Positions 277 to 30,122 of a stretch of DNA of 30,122 bases are shown here, piece after piece. The notes below the pieces were generated by a model that was not told the origin of the DNA, ran no database searches, and was given only the letters and a program-made list of their open reading frames with translations. The DNA is from a virus (lineage: Duplodnaviria; Heunggongvirae; Uroviricota; Caudoviricetes), in the IMG/VR virus record IMGVR_UViG_2690316345_000022. One strand, 5' to 3'. Each line of letters opens with the position of its first letter. Positions within the stretch are counted from its first letter, which is position 1. Both the position numbers and the translations under genes were made by a program.

Positions 277-2551
277 AGCCTCCGGGCGTTTTGTCCCTCC
301 GTCAGCATTTGCTGCAGGCACCGGTAAGGCGTTTACCGGTGTTTATGCATGGAACGCGCCACGCGAGGCTGTCGGGCGCGAAAGACCCCTTACACGTGAC
401 GAGATGCGTCAGGTGCAAGGTGTTTTATCCACGATTAACCGCCTGCCTTACTTTTTGCGCTCGCTGTTTACTTCACGCTATGACTACATCCGTCGCAATA
501 AAAGCCCGGTGCACGGGTTTTATTTCCTCACATCCACTTTTCAGCGTCGTTTATGGCCGCGCATTGAGCGTGTGAATCAGCGCCATGAAATGAACACCGA
601 CGCGTCGTTACTGTTTCTGGCAGAGCGTGACCACTATGCGCGCCTGCCGGGAATGAATGACAAGGAGCTGAAAAAGTTTGCCGCCCGTATCTCATCGCAG
701 CTTTTCATGATGTATGAGGAACTCTGCGATGCATGGGTTGATGCGCATGGTGAAAAAGAATCGCTGTTTACGGATGAGGCGCAGGCTCACCTGTATGGTC
801 ATGTTGCTGGCGCTGCACGTGCTTTCAATATTTCCCCGCTCTACTGGAAAAAATACCGTAAAGGACAGATGACCACGAGGCAGGCATATTCTGCCATTGC
901 CCGCCTGTTTAACGATGAGTGGTGGACTCATCAGCTTAAAGGCCAGCGTATGCGCTGGCATGAGGCGTTACTGATTGCTGTCGGGGAGGTCAATAAAGAC
1001 CGTTCTCCTTATGCCAGTAAACATGCCATTCGTGATGTGCGTGCGCGCCGCCAGGCAAATCTGGAATTTCTTAAATCGTGTGACCTCGAAAACAGGGAAA
1101 CCGGCGAACGCATCGACCTTATCAGTAAGGTGATGGGCAGTATTTCTAATCCTGAAATTCGCCGGATGGAGCTGATGAACACCATTGCCGGTATTGAGCG
1201 TTACGCCGCCGCAGAGGGTGATGTGGGGATGTTTATCACGCTGACCGCGCCGTCAAAGTATCACCCGACACGTCAGGTCGGAAAAGGCGAAAGTAAAACC
1301 GTTCAGCTTAATCACGGCTGGAACGATGAGGCATTTAATCCAAAGGATGCGCAGCGTTATCTCTGCCGTATCTGGAGCCTGATGCGCACGGCATTCAAGG
1401 ATAATGATTTACAGGTCTACGGTTTGCGAGTCGTCGAGCCACACCACGACGGAACGCCGCACTGGCATATGATGCTTTTTTGTAATCCACGCCAGCGTAA
1501 CCAGATTATCGAAATCATGCGTCGCTACGCGCTCAAAGAGGATGGCGACGAAAGAGGAGCTGCGCGAAACCGTTTTCAGGCAAAACACCTTAACCGGGGT
1601 GGTGCTGCGGGGTATATCGCTAAATACATCTCAAAAAATATCGACGGCTATGCACTGGATGGTCAGCTCAATAACGATACCGGCAGGCCGCTTAAAGACA
1701 CTGCCGCGGCTGTTACCGCATGGGCGTCAACGTGGCGCATTCCGCAATTTAAAACGGTTGGACTGCCGACAATGGGGGCTTACCGTGAACTACGCAAATT
1801 GCCTCGCGGCGTCAGCATAGCTGATGAGTTTGACGAACGCGTCGAGGCTGCACGCGCTGCCGCAGACAGTGGCGATTTTGCGCTGTATATCAGCGCGCAG
1901 GGTGGGGCAAATGTCCCGCGCGATTGTCAGACTGTCAGGGTCGCCCGTAGCCCGTCGGATGACGTTAACGAGTACGAGGAAGAGGTCGAGAGAGTGGTCG
2001 GTATTTACGCGCCGCATCTCGGCGCGCGTCATATTCATATCACCAGAACCACGGACTGGCGCATTGTGCCGAAAGTGCCGGTCGTTGAGCCTTTGACTTT
2101 AAAAAGCGGCATCGCCGCGCCTCGGAGTCCTGTCAATAACTGTGGAAAGCTCACCGGTGGTGATACTTCGTTACCGGCTCCCACACCTTCTGAACACGCC
2201 GCAGCAGTGCTTAATCTGGTTGATGACGGTGTTATCGAATGGAATGACCCGGAGGTCGTGAGGGCGCTCAGGGGCGCATTAAAACACGACCTGAGAACAC
2301 CAAACCGTCAGCAAAGAAACGGAAGCCCGTTAAAACCACATGAAATTGCACCATCGGCCAGACTGACCCGGTCGGAACGAATGCAAATTACCCGTATCCG
2401 CGTTGACCTTGCTCAGAACGGTATCAGGCCGCAGCGATGGGAGCTTGAGGCGCTGGCGCGTGGCGCGACCGTAAATTACGACGGGAAAAAATTCACGTAT
2501 CCGGTCGCTGATGAGTGGCCGGGATTCTCAACAGTAATGGAGTGGACATGA
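266..2551 (+). CDS. A: Replication initiation protein gpA (rolling-circle nicking endonuclease)
   Basis: ORF 224..2551; internal ATG at 266 gives MAVKASGRFVPP..., 761 aa, the P2 gpA length; the longer TTG/ATG extension in the track is probably not used. Confidence 0.92.
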   Translation: MAVKASGRFVPPSAFAAGTGKAFTGVYAWNAPREAVGRERPLTRDEMRQVQGVLSTINRLPYFLRSLFTSRYDYIRRNKSPVHGFYFLTSTFQRRLWPRIERVNQRHEMNTDASLLFLAERDHYARLPGMNDKELKKFAARISSQLFMMYEELCDAWVDAHGEKESLFTDEAQAHLYGHVAGAARAFNISPLYWKKYRKGQMTTRQAYSAIARLFNDEWWTHQLKGQRMRWHEALLIAVGEVNKDRSPYASKHAIRDVRARRQANLEFLKSCDLENRETGERIDLISKVMGSISNPEIRRMELMNTIAGIERYAAAEGDVGMFITLTAPSKYHPTRQVGKGESKTVQLNHGWNDEAFNPKDAQRYLCRIWSLMRTAFKDNDLQVYGLRVVEPHHDGTPHWHMMLFCNPRQRNQIIEIMRRYALKEDGDERGAARNRFQAKHLNRGGAAGYIAKYISKNIDGYALDGQLNNDTGRPLKDTAAAVTAWASTWRIPQFKTVGLPTMGAYRELRKLPRGVSIADEFDERVEAARAAADSGDFALYISAQGGANVPRDCQTVRVARSPSDDVNEYEEEVERVVGIYAPHLGARHIHITRTTDWRIVPKVPVVEPLTLKSGIAAPRSPVNNCGKLTGGDTSLPAPTPSEHAAAVLNLVDDGVIEWNDPEVVRALRGALKHDLRTPNRQQRNGSPLKPHEIAPSARLTRSERMQITRIRVDLAQNGIRPQRWELEALARGATVNYDGKKFTYPVADEWPGFSTVMEWT

Positions 2552-3003
2552 TGGCAAAAATTCACGAGGTAAAGCTGCACGCAAAATATTTCGACCTTGT
2601 ACTGGAAGGAAAGAAACGCGCAGAGTTTCGGAAAAATGACCGTAATTATGAGCGTGGGGACACGTTGATTTTGCATGAATGGGGGCAGGGTGTGTATACG
2701 GGGCGAAAGGTTGAAGCCCGGATAACAGATGTTACTGACCTGTCAGACTGGCTGGAAGATTATGTCTTGCTAAGTATTGATCTGCTTAATACAGGCGCAT
2801 ATGAGATTGTGAACTGGAAAGAACTTAGTGAGCGTGGGCTGGTATTCAGAATTAATCATGAAATTATGCATCAGCTCGGCCTTGCTGTTATGTATGAACC
2901 AGAGACAGGGATGTCTGGCGGGGCAATGGTTGCCACGGATGGAGCATGGAACTATTCAGATGAACAGATGGAGCGTGCACAGCAAAACGGGTGGCTTGGA
3001 TAA
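2548..3003 (+). CDS. ASCH/PUA-like (DUF3850-like) domain protein
   Basis: ORF 2515..3003; likely start MMAKIHEVKLHAKYFDLVLEGKKRAEFRKNDRNYERGDTLILHEW, which resembles the ASCH/DUF3850 N-terminal signature; overlaps A stop (translational coupling). Confidence 0.6.
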   Translation: MMAKIHEVKLHAKYFDLVLEGKKRAEFRKNDRNYERGDTLILHEWGQGVYTGRKVEARITDVTDLSDWLEDYVLLSIDLLNTGAYEIVNWKELSERGLVFRINHEIMHQLGLAVMYEPETGMSGGAMVATDGAWNYSDEQMERAQQNGWLG

Positions 3004-3209
3004 TGCACAGAATACCAGGCGAGATACCGCAGCATAAAACTAAAAATATCAAGCTGATGGCTATTGTTCAGCGTTTACAGCGGATTATGGTCAACGAAAA
3101 TTTGACGCCCGATGAGCTGGTCGGGTGTGCCGAAATAGTCCGGGATAATTACGGGCGGTTTAACCATATCGGTAAGTCCAGAGTTACGCCACCACCACGC
3201 AGACGATAG
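2991..3209 (+). CDS. Hypothetical small protein
   Basis: ORF track only (72 aa); no recognisable motifs; overlaps end of preceding ORF by 13 nt. Confidence 0.3.
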   Translation: MAWIMHRIPGEIPQHKTKNIKLMAIVQRLQRIMVNENLTPDELVGCAEIVRDNYGRFNHIGKSRVTPPPRRR

Positions 3210-3259
3210 AGAACGCCGCCAGTCATGAAACTTGTTTTCAGGGCTGACGGCGTTGAACA

Positions 3260-3588
3260 ACGAGCGAAGCGAGGCGTTAGTTATGACTATGATGGATTTA
3301 TTATATAAAATACATATGGTTATGTTATTTGGGTTACTTCGGTACTTTGTAAATAATTTGGGTTAATGATGATAAGAATTAAGAATATTAGTAGCATGGT
3401 ATTGAGAGTATTATGTTGTGAACATAAAAGAGTGTATTTGCAGAAAAGCATCAGCTCACTTGGGGTAAAGTTATGCGTACATAAGGTGCAGGAGTTACAT
3501 TCGAAGCACATTCTTATCATTTGCTAAAACGCTCGAGATTTTTGGAAGATGCCGTTATACTCTATCGGAGGATAAATCGGAGACAAAA
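3260..3588. promoter_or_regulatory. Strongly AT-rich non-coding leader upstream of the methyltransferase gene; likely promoter region and left boundary of acquired cargo
   Basis: Abrupt drop in GC after 3210 (long A/T tracts such as ttatataaaatacatatggttatgttattt); GGAG-like RBS (tcggagg) about 25 nt upstream of the ATG at 3589. Confidence 0.35.
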
Positions 3589-4626
3589 ATGGCTGTAAAA
3601 GTTGTTGATCTTTTTTGTGGTGCTGGCGGTCTTACACATGGCCTAAGACAGGCCGGATTAAATGTAGTCGCTGGTATTGATATAGAGAGTGCATGCAGGG
3701 TTGCTTATGAAAGCAATAATAGTGCGCTTTTTATTGAAAAAGATATTTCTCTGGTAACCAAAGACGAGCTTGAAGGTCTATTTGAAGGGGCACAAGTTAA
3801 GGTATTGGCGGGATGTGCACCGTGCCAACCCTTTTCTAGGTATACGCAGGGGCGTGATAAGAAAAATGACAAAAAATGGCCTCTTCTTTACGAATTTGAA
3901 CGTTTAATTCGGGATGTTAATCCAGAGATTGTGACAATGGAAAATGTTCCTGATGTGACGAAGCATTCAGTTTACAGTGATTTCTATAATAGCTTAGAGT
4001 CATTAGGCTATTATGTTTGGGCAGGGACAGTTGAATGTGTAGATTATGGCATTCCACAAAATAGAGTAAGGCATGTATTATTAGCATCTAAATTTGCACC
4101 ACTTTCCTTTGTAAGACCAAAAGTACAAAAAACGGTAACGGTGAAAGAATGCATTGGTGGATTACCTCCATTAGAGGCAGGCCAGACGGATCCAGTTGAC
4201 CCTTTACATAAAGCAAGTAAATTAAGTGACATTAATCTTAAACGTATTGCTTGTTCAAAGCCTGGTGGAACGTGGCGAGATTGGCCGATAGAGTTGGTTG
4301 CGTCATGCCATATAAAGAAAAGTGGGCAAGGTTATGCCAGTGTCTATGGTCGTATGGACTGGGATAAACCAAGTCCTACCATCACCACGCTGTGTTATGG
4401 TTTTGGGAATGGCAGATTTGGCCACCCAGAGCAGAATCGTGCAATTTCTTTGAGAGAGGCAGCCCTGTTACAAACCTTTCCAAGTGATTACATTTTTACT
4501 GCACCTAATGAGAAGATCTCTGTGAAGAACGTTGGCAGGATGATCGGTAATGCCGTGCCGGTAAAATTAGGGAAGGTTATAGGTGAGTCAATTATAACCC
4601 ACCTAAAAGAGAATAATATAATTTAA
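3589..4626 (+). CDS. DNA (cytosine-5)-methyltransferase
   Basis: 345 aa with canonical C5-MTase motifs: I DLFCGAGG, IV GCAPCQPFS (catalytic Cys), VI ENVPDV, VIII QNRVR, X GNAVPVKLG. Target specificity unknown. Confidence 0.9.
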   Translation: MAVKVVDLFCGAGGLTHGLRQAGLNVVAGIDIESACRVAYESNNSALFIEKDISLVTKDELEGLFEGAQVKVLAGCAPCQPFSRYTQGRDKKNDKKWPLLYEFERLIRDVNPEIVTMENVPDVTKHSVYSDFYNSLESLGYYVWAGTVECVDYGIPQNRVRHVLLASKFAPLSFVRPKVQKTVTVKECIGGLPPLEAGQTDPVDPLHKASKLSDINLKRIACSKPGGTWRDWPIELVASCHIKKSGQGYASVYGRMDWDKPSPTITTLCYGFGNGRFGHPEQNRAISLREAALLQTFPSDYIFTAPNEKISVKNVGRMIGNAVPVKLGKVIGESIITHLKENNII

Positions 4627-5354
4627 GCCTGTAAACTTGATGATCGTATGTATAAGCGATCATCAAGATATTTTTGTATATTTTCTAGGATTTCTTCGAG
4701 GTAATAAAACACTTCATTTTTAAGAAGTTCAAGATTATCAATGGAAGTATCTTGGCCCTTGTTCAGAAAGGATTCTGAGCCATGCGCTAAAGCATTTCTG
4801 GCATTTTTTATATTTACTAAATTTCCACCATTATGAGTTTTTAAGCGATTTGTTTGAGAGGAAAATCCATATATATTAGCTACATCTCTAATTTTCTGTG
4901 CATCTACATTTCCAGAAAAAAGAGGGTTTTTATCTGCTTTGACTTGTTTTTTATGCTCCTCTAACCATTTTTTTAATACTAGTTTTGCAACATCGCCTTG
5001 TGAAAAATCCATGTCACTAACCATATGATGATCTAATTTTTTTAAGGCAAGTTTTGTTAAGCTTTCACATATCTTATCAATGCAAAGATCATTACATGAA
5101 TTGAGTTCGTCATGTATATCTTCAATAGCATTAGATATAGTGGCTTCTATTAGGTTATACAATATAATAAACGCATTTGCTTTAAGTATATGCGTCATTT
5201 CGATATCAATGTTACGAAGTTTGTACTCATCAGAATCACGATCTTTATAAGAGAATGATGGCCTCTCATCAATAATGAATTTAACAAAATCAAAATATTT
5301 TTCTATATCTTCTTTTCTTTCAGAGAATAATATTTTGCTGTTCATGGTGACCAC
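4623..5354 (-). CDS. HEPN-like domain protein (predicted nuclease), downstream partner of the DUF262 gene
   Basis: 243-aa ORF; predicted GTG start 6 nt after the DUF262 stop with GAGGAG RBS overlapping that stop; C-terminal ARNALAHG matches the HEPN Rx4-6H motif; very AT-rich. Confidence 0.6.
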   Translation of the reverse strand: MVTMNSKILFSERKEDIEKYFDFVKFIIDERPSFSYKDRDSDEYKLRNIDIEMTHILKANAFIILYNLIEATISNAIEDIHDELNSCNDLCIDKICESLTKLALKKLDHHMVSDMDFSQGDVAKLVLKKWLEEHKKQVKADKNPLFSGNVDAQKIRDVANIYGFSSQTNRLKTHNGGNLVNIKNARNALAHGSESFLNKGQDTSIDNLELLKNEVFYYLEEILENIQKYLDDRLYIRSSSLQA

Positions 5355-5360
5355 GGATAA

Positions 5361-6485
5361 TTACTCCTCACTGTCATCTTGAACAGTATCTTGAGTCTGT
5401 ACACCTAAAAGTTTATCTCTTACATATTCAATTCGTGCTTTAACTTTAGGTTTTGAGTTCGAGGCATCAGATCTAGTATGTTTAATGAACTCTACAGAGT
5501 TAAGCCATTCAGTTACTGGGGCTGGTGTTATGCTTGGATTAGTTTGTAAGGCTAAAGTTGAACCAACAGCCAGTGCTTCAAAACGTATTCTTGGTACAGT
5601 ATTTGCCGTTTCGTTTTTTCTGAAACCATAGGGGAAATTCTGTTTTACAAATCTGCACATATCTTGAAATTGTTTAGCTAATTTGTTTTCTTGTTCAGCG
5701 GAAAATGTATTATTTCTATTATCAAGATATTGAGTTAGGAATGTGTCAACACTTTTTTCAAAGTGGAGATAGTTATCACAATATGCGAAATATCTAAGAA
5801 CTAATTCAGGATATTCTCCTCGATTGATTCGAGCATCGTTTAGGGGACATATTTCTCTAAACAATGGAAGTTCAGACAGACTATTAATGAAATCCAGGAA
5901 AGGACCATCATTGCTGCCTTGTCGCTGCTCCATTGTTGTAAGTCTTATTCCGCCTGTATTTAATCTATCGAAAATCTCTCTCCTTGCTTCTTCATCACAT
6001 AATTCAGTGAGTTCAATCATTCTAATAGTTTTCCTGTCGAATCTAAGCTTACGCGCAGGTGTGAAGTCAGAGTATTTGAATCCGTTAGCTGAAGTTAGTT
6101 TTTTTAATCCAGTAAGAGTAAATTTATCATTTAGGAAATGATAAAGTGTTCTAATCCTCTGGCTGCCATCAACGATTTCCAATCGTCCATCGTCATTTCC
6201 GATATCGGCGACAAATACATATGGAATAGGAATGTTTAGTAAAAGCGATTCAATGAATCTTGATTTTTGTATATTGTTCCAAACAAACTCCCTTTGATAG
6301 TCAGGAATATATAGCTCAGCTTGATCGGTTTCTAATCCTTTCTGAAACTTGTCAACAATAACACTAACAGGAAATTCTCTGATTTGGTGATCGGTTATTT
6401 TTTGCATGGATTTGATCTGGCTATCCAGTTCAATTTTATCTTCTTCTGTGATCACTTGTTCAGGCTGTCTTGGGACTCTTGCCAT
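5361..6485 (-). CDS. DUF262 / ParB-like (GmrSD N-terminal-type) domain protein
   Basis: ORF 5361..6512; likely ATG at 6485 (MARVPRQPEQ...) preceded by AAGGAG RBS; contains IVDGSQRIRTL, a variant of the DGQQR motif of DUF262; no obvious DUF1524/HNH motif seen by eye. Confidence 0.75.
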   Translation of the reverse strand: MARVPRQPEQVITEEDKIELDSQIKSMQKITDHQIREFPVSVIVDKFQKGLETDQAELYIPDYQREFVWNNIQKSRFIESLLLNIPIPYVFVADIGNDDGRLEIVDGSQRIRTLYHFLNDKFTLTGLKKLTSANGFKYSDFTPARKLRFDRKTIRMIELTELCDEEARREIFDRLNTGGIRLTTMEQRQGSNDGPFLDFINSLSELPLFREICPLNDARINRGEYPELVLRYFAYCDNYLHFEKSVDTFLTQYLDNRNNTFSAEQENKLAKQFQDMCRFVKQNFPYGFRKNETANTVPRIRFEALAVGSTLALQTNPSITPAPVTEWLNSVEFIKHTRSDASNSKPKVKARIEYVRDKLLGVQTQDTVQDDSEE

Positions 6486-6628
6486 GTGGTTTCTCCTTAT
6501 GCTTATTTGCAATAAGTTGCATTAGTTTGCATGTGTAATTTTATACTGATTTAATCCCACAAACTCTTTACATGCAAGGGGTTGAAGCTTAAATGCAACT
6601 GCATTAAAACCGTCCCATGAAGCGGGCG

Positions 6629-21459: not shown

Positions 21460-22053
21460 ATGTTTACTAAGCGACGATTAAAAAATATTAACTGGGAGGC
21501 AAGTTCAGTGATTCTTGCTATGGTTCTCTTTGTTGGAAATATATTTTATACAAATCATCGTGATGATATAAGCATGGAGGCTGAGAGGGACAGTATCAGA
21601 ACAATGTTTGCATATGAAATCGCTAATAACCATCGCGCTCTCACTTTTCTTGATAAAACGAGACATATTGGCTTTGACGAAAATTCGGAGCATTTTGTTG
21701 GCGAGCCTTTTGCCATTAATGTCAAATCATTAGGGGGGCCTCGCTTACAGATTGCATTAAACCAGACTGATAAAGTGTTTAAATCCTACTTCAGCGAATT
21801 AAGTAAGCTTGATAAAGAGGATGTTACTCTTCTTATGGACTATTACCATGAGCAAAGCATCCTGCTGGAGCGTGTAAAATCTACGTTACAGAAGATGAAA
21901 AGTGGTAATGATATTAAAGTTGATATTGATGGTTACTTATTAGAAGAACACTTCATGAATGAGCTTAATCTTTCTAATATTTTGCTTAAACGCTATAGCC
22001 ATTTGTTGTCACAATACGCTAAAGAACATAAAACAAAAGATTTACATAATTGA
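21460..22053 (+). CDS. Hypothetical membrane-anchored protein in the G-FI accessory slot (P2 Z/fun position)
   Basis: 197-aa ORF in an AT-rich island; N-terminus MFTKRRLKNINWEASSVILAMVLFVGNIFY is a basic stretch followed by a hydrophobic helix; AAGG RBS upstream; no recognisable catalytic motifs. Confidence 0.6.
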   Translation: MFTKRRLKNINWEASSVILAMVLFVGNIFYTNHRDDISMEAERDSIRTMFAYEIANNHRALTFLDKTRHIGFDENSEHFVGEPFAINVKSLGGPRLQIALNQTDKVFKSYFSELSKLDKEDVTLLMDYYHEQSILLERVKSTLQKMKSGNDIKVDIDGYLLEEHFMNELNLSNILLKRYSHLLSQYAKEHKTKDLHN

Positions 22054-27522: not shown

Positions 27523-28684
27523 TGCTGGATGCGCTGACATTTGATGCAGGCAGTACGCTGACGCCGGATTACATGCTGATGCTCGACAGCAGGGATATTA
27601 CCGGCAATATCAGCGACCGTCTGATGAACATGACCCTGACGGATAACCGGGGCTTTGAGGCTGACCAGCTTGATATTGAACTGAACGATGCCGACGGGCA
27701 GGTCGGGCTGCCGGTTCGTGGCGCTGTCCTGACGGTGTATATCGGCTGGAAAGGTTTTGCCCTGGTATGCAAAGGGAAATTTACCGTTGATGAGGTTGAA
27801 CACCGGGGCGCACCGGATGTGGTCACCATCCGCGCCCGGAGTGCAGATTTTCGCGGGACGCTCAATTCCCGCCGTGAAGGCTCCTGGCATGACACCACGC
27901 TCGGTGCGATTGTTGAGGCGATAGCCTCCCGTAACAGGCTGGAAGCCAGTGTCGTTCCATCACTGGCCGGAATTAAAATCCCGCACATCGACCAGTCGCA
28001 GGAGTCTGATGCAAAATTCCTGACCCGCCTTGCTGAACGCAACGGCGGTGAGGTGTCGGTAAAAATGGGAAAACTGTTGTTTCTCAAGCGGGGCAGGGGG
28101 TGACGGCCAGCGGTAAAAAAGTCCCGCAGGTCACCATAACCCGCAGCGACGGCGACCGCCATCATTTTGCGATTGCTGACCGTGGAGCCTATACCGGCGT
28201 AACGGCAAAGTGGTTACACACCAAAGACCCGAAGCCGCAAAAGCAGAAGGTAAAACTGAAACGCAAAAAGAAAGAGAAACACCTGCGCGCACTGGAGCAC
28301 CCGAAAGCGAAACCAGTCACGCAGAAGAAAGCGCCAAAAGTACCGGAAGCGCGCGAAGGTGAATACATGGCCGGTGAGGCTGACAACGTTTTTGCACTGA
28401 CCACGGTATATGCCACGAAAGCACAGGCCATGCGCGCCGCTCAGGCGAAGTGGGATAAACTGCAACGGGGTGTGGCGGAGTTCTCCATCAGCCTGGCTAC
28501 CGGTCGGGCAGATATTTACACGGAAACACCGGTTAAAGTGTCAGGCTTTAAGCGCGTCATAGACGAGCAGGACTGGACAATCACTAAGGTGACACATTTT
28601 CTGAATAATAGCGGCTTCACGACGTCCTTAGAGCTTGAGGTCAGGCTTTCTGATGTGGAGTACGAAACCGAAGATGATGAGTGA
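27522..28684 (+). pseudogene. D: Tail protein gene D interrupted by an apparent 1-bp deletion (-1 frameshift near 28088); possible sequencing error
   Basis: Two abutting ORFs (27522..28103, 193 aa; 28100..28684, 194 aa) total the expected 387 aa of gpD; the second frame is open upstream and reads ...AGQGVTASGKK across the break. Confidence 0.6.
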
Positions 28685-28765
28685 TGTTTTTATTTTATCT
28701 ATTTGTTTTATAAGGATAAATTAACTAAAATGGCACCATCAACAAAACCGGAAGAGGTGCTCGCG

Positions 28766-28984
28766 ATGTTTCATTGTCCTTTATGCCAGCATGCCGCACA
28801 TGCGCGTACAAGCCGCTATATCACTGACACGACAAAAGAGCGTTATCACCAGTGTCAGAACGTGAATTGCAGCGCCACGTTCATCACTTATGAGTCGGTA
28901 CAGCGATACATCGTGAAGCCGGGAGAAGTCCACGCCGTAAGGCCGCACCCGTTACCATCAGGACAGCAAATTATGTGGATGTGA
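28766..28984 (+). CDS. ogr: Late gene transcriptional activator Ogr (zinc-finger)
   Basis: ORF 28703..28984; ATG at 28766 gives 72 aa MFHCPLCQHAAHARTSRYITDTTKERYHQCQNVNC... with the C-x2-C...C-x4-C zinc motif of Ogr/Delta. Confidence 0.9.
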   Translation: MFHCPLCQHAAHARTSRYITDTTKERYHQCQNVNCSATFITYESVQRYIVKPGEVHAVRPHPLPSGQQIMWM

Positions 28985-28994
28985 TCACAAAAAT

Positions 28995-29020
28995 AGCCCC
29001 TCAGTTGAGGGGCTTATTTA
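28995..29020 (+). terminator. Rho-independent terminator after ogr
   Basis: AGCCCCTCA-GT-TGAGGGGCT hairpin followed by TTATTTA; flanked by A-run on the other side (could act bidirectionally). Confidence 0.6.
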
Positions 29021-29110
29021 TGGTCGATGTGGACGCTATGTGGACAGTGCTTGATATAAATCCATTTATATCATCAGGTTAGGTGCTTTTTTGTGACACC
29101 ATCCCTGTCT
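29021..29110. other. attR: Probable attR junction region (prophage/host boundary); exact core not determinable without attL
   Basis: Lies between ogr, the last phage gene before attP in P2, and host-like sequence; contains a perfect 10-bp inverted repeat at 29052-29073. Confidence 0.4.
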
Positions 29111-29111
29111 T

Positions 29112-29138
29112 CCCCCACATGATGTGGGGGTTTTTTTT
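29112..29138 (+). terminator. Host rho-independent terminator upstream of fieF, resembling the cpxP 3'UTR / CpxQ sRNA terminator
   Basis: CCCCCACATGATGTGGGGG stem-loop followed by TTTTTTTT; preceding GACACCATCCCTGTCTTCCCCCACAT resembles my recollection of CpxQ. Confidence 0.5.
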
Positions 29139-29219
29139 ATCCTCAATTTGCCTGCTGCTTAATGCATTGCAGATGATTTGCTTCCGTTATACTAGCGTCA
29201 GTTGATAGCGGGAGTATTT

Positions 29220-30122
29220 ATGAATCAATCTTATGGACGGCTGGTCAGTCGGGCGGCGATTGCTGCGACGGCGATGGCTTCGCTGCTATTGCTGATTAAA
29301 ATTTTTGCATGGTGGTATACCGGGTCGGTGAGTATTCTCGCCGCGCTGGTGGATTCGCTGGTGGATATCGGCGCGTCGTTGACGAATTTATTGGTGGTGC
29401 GATATTCCCTGCAACCTGCCGACGATAATCACTCGTTTGGTCACGGTAAAGCTGAGTCCCTCGCGGCGCTGGCGCAAAGTATGTTTATCTCCGGTTCGGC
29501 ACTATTCCTGTTTTTGACGGGTATTCAACATCTGATATCTCCAACACCGATGACAGATCCAGGCGTCGGGGTTATCGTGACAATTGTGGCGCTAATTTGT
29601 ACGATTATCCTTGTCTCGTTTCAGCGTTGGGTGGTGCGGCGGACGCAAAGCCAGGCGGTGCGGGCTGATATGCTACATTACCAGTCTGATGTTATGATGA
29701 ACGGCGCAATTCTGCTGGCGCTGGGGTTGTCCTGGTACGGCTGGCATCGCGCCGATGCTCTGTTTGCATTGGGAATCGGCATCTATATTTTATATAGCGC
29801 GTTACGCATGGGATATGAGGCGGTACAGTCATTACTGGATCGCGCATTGCCTGATGAGGAACGGCAAGAAATTATTGATATCGTGACTTCCTGGCCGGGT
29901 GTTAGCGGCGCTCACGATCTTCGCACGCGGCAGTCAGGGCCGACCCGCTTTATTCAGATTCATTTGGAAATGGAAGACTCTCTGCCTTTGGTTCAGGCAC
30001 ATATGGTGGCGGATCAGGTAGAGCAGGCTATTTTACGGCGTTTTCCGGGATCGGATGTAATTATCCATCAGGACCCCTGTTCCGTCGTACCCAGGGAGGG
30101 TAAACGGTCTATGCTTTCATAA
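29220..30122 (+). CDS. fieF: Cation diffusion facilitator family ferrous-iron/zinc efflux transporter FieF (YiiP), host chromosomal gene
   Basis: ORF 29202..30122; ATG at 29220 gives 300 aa [53 protein letters not shown]..., matching E. coli FieF from memory; six TM helices plus C-terminal cytoplasmic domain. Confidence 0.93.

Follow-up and report, generated by a model that had tools for sequence, protein, structure and literature searches.

Long phage attachment cores are known to keep tRNA or tmRNA genes intact upon integration (PMC3448106), and P2-like prophages are tabulated for Escherichia coli W at the small RNA (sRNA) genes rybB and cyaR, in a table that also places prophage Wphi1 (P2) of the same strain between cpxP and fieF (PMC3032704). 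The latter position is likewise occupied in O157:H7, by a prophage of 31 kb (PMC7609406). The attP of P2 is flanked by ogr and int, served by a tyrosine integrase and equipped with two TGTGGAC-type repeats per arm (PMC3448106). The 3'UTR of cpxP is in turn the source of CpxQ, an sRNA of 58 nt (PMC6755755), which is released by RNase E (PMC6755755; PMC9438474) and the 5' end of which constitutes the seed for nhaB and cfa (PMC6755755). The cpxP-fieF site of phage Wphi is, hence, already published, and the overlap with CpxQ described here is a re-annotation, not a new mechanism; the literature on CpxQ together with prophage or integrase yielded no statement that the Wphi core corresponds to the 3' part of CpxQ.

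The DNA analysed (IMG/VR record IMGVR_UViG_2690316345_000022; 30,122 nt in total, referred to as the window) contains a P2-like prophage, as evident from P2 gene order and homology (A, Q, P, O, N ... T, U, D, ogr). Outside two cargo spots, the window is 95.5-97% identical to the prophage of O91 strain RM7190, for which the annotation lists the complete set of P2 genes. About 3.4 kb separate the window from its own attL, and int lies outside as well; all evidence on attL is taken from related lysogens. At the variable spot known as tin/old in P2, the accessory cargo (2515-6512) comprises genes for a DUF3850/ASCH protein (2515-3003, + strand), a C5 cytosine methylase (3589-4626, + strand) and the members of a convergent pair, a HEPN_MAE_28990 protein (4623-5354, - strand) and a GmrSD_N/DUF262 protein (5361-6512, - strand). 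The latter matches PADLOC NsnA (3.7e-55) and PD-T4-2_A (2.4e-34), so the pair likely constitutes an anti-phage defence system. No match above about 94% identity to the cargo region was found among the complete RefSeq E. coli genomes. The RM7190 prophage carries cdtABC (Cdt-V) at the tin/old spot instead, and prophages at cpxP-fieF often bear virulence or defence cargo, e.g. cdt-V in RM7190 and fiAA91-ss. The second variable spot, located between the tail-fibre assembly and tail-sheath genes, harbours an ORF of 197 aa (21460-22053, + strand) without Pfam or PADLOC match; in RM7190 this spot is taken by a DUF3800 gene.

The final gene of the prophage is ogr (28766-28984, + strand), coding for the late-gene activator of 72 aa (Pfam Ogr_Delta, E = 1.1e-21; its orthologue in RM7190 is named ogrK by RefSeq). 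It is followed by an intrinsic terminator (28995-29022) predicted on both strands, the stem (28995-29014) being succeeded by a T-rich tail on the + as well as on the - strand. The T tract of this terminator is interrupted (TTATTTAT), whereas that of the CpxQ terminator forms an uninterrupted U8. The region 28985-29094 represents the phage P' arm of attR, since it matches the attP of Wphi and of fiAA91-ss with isolated differences only and is absent from attB. Its part distal to the terminator, ~72 bp of A/T-rich phage DNA (29023-29094), carries two predicted direct arm-type integrase-binding repeats, ATGTGGAC (29027-29046, + strand; 29027-29034 and 29038-29045, 11 bp apart), which are of the TGTGGAC type, fit the P2-type arm consensus tgTGGaCa (PMC3448106) and are kept in the diverged IMG/VR attP variants L008-L010. 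Further towards the core, a perfect A/T-rich palindrome of 10+10 bp, TGATATAAAT-cc-ATTTATATCA (29052-29073), is read from the sequence. It would fold into a hairpin if transcribed and is retained with changes in the diverged P' arms of L008-L010, palindromy being full in L009 and partial in L010. Possible roles of this palindrome are protein binding and contribution of the A/T element to a site for IHF, the consensus of which is WATCARNNNNTTR. A putative IHF-like site, TATCATCAGGTTA (29069-29081, + strand), deviates from this consensus by one mismatch, and variant L008 has a perfect match at the equivalent position. Ahead of the core lies a U-rich stretch, GCUUUUUUGU. A simple promoter/terminator scan of 28650-29300 predicted no sigma-70-like promoter, and a promoter within the P' arm was dropped as a candidate on this basis.

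The extent of host DNA at this junction was delimited with a 271-bp query (28990-29260), which found a match in all 5426 complete E. coli genomes. In unlysogenised genomes the match begins at query position 106, i.e. window position 29095, and continues into fieF, with nothing matched left of 29095. The first-pass annotation, which had placed the prophage-host junction inside the cpxP 3'UTR/CpxQ region and had proposed alignment to the unlysogenised cpxP-fieF spacer as a check, is borne out by this result. It had also noted a resemblance to CpxQ and its terminator in the string GACACCATCCCTGTCTTCCCCCACATGATGTGGGGGTTTTTTTT; this string is located at 29095-29138 and matches E. coli CpxQ (58 nt) exactly from nt 15 to nt 58, terminator included. 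Its statement that the segment directly follows the ogr terminator did not hold, since the P'-arm DNA intervenes; the interval given, 29021-29140, accordingly takes in about 74 bp of phage arm besides the core. In the K-12-like strain, cpxP (up to L001:1477) is confirmed to lie just upstream of fieF (from 1626); the spacer of 148 bp reads ...CCCTG TTTTCCTTGCCATA GACACCATCCCTGTCTTCCCCCACATGATGTGGGGG TTTTTTTT ATCC.... The 58 nt of this spacer that end at the T8 run (L001:1487-1544) read UUUUCCUUGCCAUAGACACC...U8, and counting back 58 nt from the T8 end gives the start UUUUCCUUGCCAUA..., consistent with a CpxQ of 58 nt.

Five sequences were aligned to define the core: attB of the K-12-like strain, attL of RM7190 (the attR junction of which is 100% identical over the 271-bp query), attR of the window, and attP of Wphi and fiAA91-ss. 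A block of 47 bp, GACACC...TTTTTTTTATC (29095-29141, + strand), is invariant in all five (47/47), occurs once within the window and represents the common core of the Wphi-type attachment site, composed of CpxQ nt 15-58 plus ATC. Around it, attR combines the left side of attP with the right side of attB, and attL the left side of attB with the right side of attP; such mirror-image flanks around an invariant core are the signature of Campbell-type site-specific integration. The comparison of attL with its duplicate, likewise proposed earlier as a check, revealed identical 47-bp cores at attL and attR of the RM7190 lysogen. On the B' side, the 78 bp preceding fieF (29142-29219, + strand) are identical to the K-12-like attB and represent unaltered host DNA; fieF itself (29220-30122, + strand) codes for a CDF cation-efflux transporter (Pfam Cation_efflux and ZT_dimer; RefSeq annotation of matching genomes).

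We infer that strand exchange took place somewhere within the 47-bp core (29095-29141). The cores of attB, attL, attR and attP in E. coli are all identical, i.e. these natural variants provide no positional information for mapping the crossover. A G4T9 variant in a Salmonella attL was rejected as a crossover marker, since it is shared by unoccupied sites in further species. A Klebsiella-type attB is identical to attP only as far as the T8 run, and two attP variants share identity from CACC onward only; these two limits point to a minimal common core of about 42 bp, located entirely within CpxQ.

The region 28985-29141 can with high confidence be assigned as the attR of a P2-like (Peduovirus) prophage that attaches with the specificity of coliphage Wphi: neither Wphi attP nor the cpxP-fieF attB differs from it in the core, and its P' arm is homologous to that of Wphi attP, adjoins ogr and bears direct arm repeats of the P2 type. 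P2 itself has a core and chromosomal sites different from those of the Wphi type. A 442-bp query extending from ogr to the core is 97.7% identical to Wphi. Among 94 matching phage records, 73 (Wphi included) contain core and P' arm at a coverage of at least 80%; in the other 21, ogr is matched, but less than 80% of the ogr-to-core query is covered.

In the proposed integration model, attP of the phage is ordered ogr, P' arm, 47-bp core, P arm and int, its core being identical to the last 44 nt of host CpxQ (cpxP 3'UTR plus terminator) and 3 additional nt. The phage tyrosine integrase would exchange strands inside this shared core, as in standard Campbell integration, and thereby generate an attL composed of cpxP, complete CpxQ and the P arm adjoining int, and an attR in which ogr and the P' arm are followed by CpxQ nt 15-58 and fieF. 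A sequence-intact cpxP-CpxQ transcription unit would accordingly be retained by the host at attL, and the attR copy would come to lie behind the ogr terminator, deprived of cpxP promoter, RNase E site and 5' seed.

The 5'-truncated CpxQ copy at attR (nt 15-58; 29095-29138, + strand) lacks the 14-nt 5' seed as well as the RNase E processing site and ends with the Rho-independent terminator of CpxQ/cpxP (29112-29138, + strand; predicted stem of 8 pairs, loop of 3, then U8). The phage sequence GGTGCTTTTTTGT stands in place of the CpxQ 5' part, and the copy is preceded by ogr and the P' arm, not by cpxP. In common with CpxQ (equivalent to Hrs1 of Erwinia, RF02628), the copy has the conserved internal region as well as the terminator with its hairpin and U8 tail (Hfq module), and the predicted fold resembles that of the native CpxQ 3' part. 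In contrast, nt 1-14, the cpxP promoter and the cpxP context are missing along with the RNase E site. Judged by its sequence, the attR copy is not a CpxQ gene; most likely it is a silent by-product that would also terminate read-through ahead of fieF. Such a second, partial CpxQ copy in lysogens can confuse read mapping and sRNA annotation.

Screening of the window against Rfam yielded no match at the gathering threshold. At the E-value threshold, the only meaningful match was antisense Hrs1 (RF02628; 29072-29138, - strand), the other, weak matches being to unrelated terminator-containing sRNAs. The antisense score of RF02628 amounts to 44.5 bits for intact E. coli CpxQ (L001 1472-1544) versus 31.8 bits at attR, with a gathering score of 56.4. 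Rfam contains no sense-strand CpxQ family. RF02628 represents Hrs1, the Erwinia homologue of CpxQ, and hrs1 is described as located in the cpxP-fieF interval and co-oriented with the two genes (Zeng & Sundin 2014). In Erwinia and Pantoea (L061, L022, L070), in contrast, the RF02628 model finds its match on the strand opposite cpxP, with 63-74 bits, and thus appears to be reverse-complemented. Rfam scans would miss CpxQ because of this apparent reversal of the model and because E. coli CpxQ scores below the gathering threshold.

The left-hand junction was read in three E. coli lysogens (RM7190, PMV-1 and strain 19-5; both P-arm classes represented) as well as in IMG/VR attL contigs, about 10 in number, whose hosts are E. 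coli-like or Klebsiella-like; CpxQ proved intact at every one of these junctions. In the lysogens read, attL is identical to attB from the cpxP stop through the RNase E site region and the full 58 nt of CpxQ to the terminator, and the integrases next to attL in RM7190 and PMV-1 are 99% identical to Wphi Int. As judged from these relatives, attL rebuilds the complete cpxP-CpxQ unit with the whole cpxP 3'UTR, because the phage attP brings the 47-bp segment itself. Across the 5426 complete E. coli genomes, the attR junction (ogr-attR-fieF) was detected in 790 and the attL junction (cpxP-CpxQ-P arm) in 789, i.e. about 14.5% of these genomes (about one in seven) harbour such a prophage. With a 231-bp junction query, the P arms of E. 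coli lysogens fall into two classes, about 260 matching the RM7190/Wphi type with 99% identity or more and 528 showing 80-90% identity. The two classes hardly differ in their integrases, and both keep the arm repeats; P-arm spacer DNA, therefore, tolerates much divergence.

An influence of the prophage on CpxQ, in trans or in cis, could arise from convergent transcription, with C-int transcripts running antisense over CpxQ and cpxP at attL once integration has relocated their natural terminator, the bidirectional one of ogr, to attR. In RM7190, int at attL converges on cpxP, and no int-sense terminator was predicted between the int stop and the core (L002 32771-32960). Antisense transcription over CpxQ in lysogens is conceivable because no such terminator is predicted at attL, whereas the transcript of the attP form would meet the ogr terminator, predicted on both strands; the C-int transcript may, hence, acquire a different 3' end upon integration and extend into CpxQ and cpxP. 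The topology resembles that of lambda sib. If true, the fate of int mRNA and the levels of CpxQ/CpxP would be coupled to envelope stress. The terminator predictions stem, however, from a simple pattern scan, and the presence of the prophage in one out of seven genomes makes a large cost unlikely, so that convergent transcription is regarded as rather improbable. Slightly lower still is the probability assigned to a jointly regulatory placement, in which antisense C-int transcription over CpxQ/cpxP and/or lytic ogr read-through giving a partial CpxQ mimic would operate. The significance of the locus is mainly one of annotation, and no new question arises unless these antisense or read-through effects are real.

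Expression of the phage-borne CpxQ fragment, taken by itself, is quite doubtful. Lytic read-through from ogr, in attP or attR, would in this case pass the weaker ogr terminator, stop at the strong one of CpxQ and produce an Hfq-binding ogr 3'UTR RNA that contains the internal CpxQ region and acts as CpxQ mimic or sponge. The interrupted T tract of the ogr terminator as compared to U8 at the CpxQ terminator, the U-rich stretch before the core and the preserved Hfq-binding module (terminator hairpin and U tail) with its native-like fold would agree with such an RNA. The presence of the fragment is, however, fully explained by the identity required between attP and attB, the 5' seed for nhaB and cfa is absent (PMC6755755), and the P' arm is devoid of a predicted promoter.

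Disruption of CpxQ by the integration event is even less probable and was deemed very unlikely. The first-pass annotation had suspected that the element was separated from cpxP, about 30 kb away at attL, and that CpxQ production could be altered unless attL rebuilds the 3'UTR. In its full form, this reading would leave the host with its only CpxQ/terminator 30 kb from cpxP and with CpxQ production lost or changed through loss of sequence. The distance was correctly perceived, cpxP being located about 31-33 kb from the attR copy, which moreover lacks CpxQ nt 1-14. This copy is, however, a partial duplicate brought by the phage and not the only one of the host. The reservation about attL was well placed: complete CpxQ was found at attL in every congeneric lysogen read, from the cpxP stop to the terminator as in attB, and the contiguous cpxP-CpxQ-P arm junction recurs in 789 genomes. 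Altered CpxQ production has no sequence evidence in its favour. With cpxP-CpxQ unchanged at attL and the DNA 5' of fieF unaltered, the concern that CpxQ is lost in lysogens is not supported at the sequence level, on the basis of related lysogens. That a generic GC-rich terminator resembles CpxQ by chance, in favour of which only the generic hairpin shape and the weak Rfam matches to unrelated terminator-containing sRNAs could be put forward, is discarded, since the 47/47 identity runs on into fieF and all 5426 genomes match from 29095 on.

Beyond E. coli, a 22-nt internal word of CpxQ is present in at least 120 Enterobacterales species genomes, and the host-type CpxQ 5' part precedes it in every case among the matches listed. 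A Wphi Int homologue (60-88% identity) or a fragment thereof is encoded immediately 3' of CpxQ, in antiparallel orientation, in at least 13 of the 120 genomes listed, the genera including Salmonella, Yokenella, Kosakonia, Pseudocitrobacter, Serratia, Rosenbergiella and Tatumella. In several of these genomes, fieF follows a few kb beyond the Int homologue, which points to decayed prophages. Other sequence types were observed after the CpxQ terminator in other genera, e.g. ATCAGGCACTTAGAAAAAATCCCTTATAAAT (L025, L028, L029, L088, L108, L137 and others), and the Int homologues at these loci share just 60-72% identity or are represented by int fragments. The varied sequence types and diverged Int homologues 3' of CpxQ thus mark its 3' end as a multi-lineage integration hotspot, with many apparently decayed remnants between CpxQ and fieF. 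An sRNA derived from a 3'UTR can be a phage attachment site just as tRNA, tmRNA and free-standing sRNA genes are, and this across many genera of Enterobacterales.

The closest known counterpart is Wphi (Peduovirus Wphi, AY135739; attB cpxP-fieF (yiiP)), with which the window shares an identical core, a P' arm with isolated differences and the same order ogr-P'-core, and with which the congeneric lysogens share 99% identical Int and the same host neighbours. The prophage of the window differs from Wphi in its cargo, i.e. the methylase and the DUF262/HEPN pair. The architecture described above for P2 attP is found here as well. As in 186 in tRNA-Ile, Fels-2/SopEPhi in ssrA and the P2-like prophages at rybB/cyaR, the RNA-gene 3' end carried by the phage keeps the gene intact, with a partial duplicate remaining at the opposite junction (PMC3448106, PMC3032704). 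The Wphi-type case is, in this respect, ordinary integration into the 3' end of an RNA gene. Unlike in those cases, the target here is an sRNA processed from the 3'UTR of an mRNA, and the segment shared between phage and host doubles as the terminator of cpxP.
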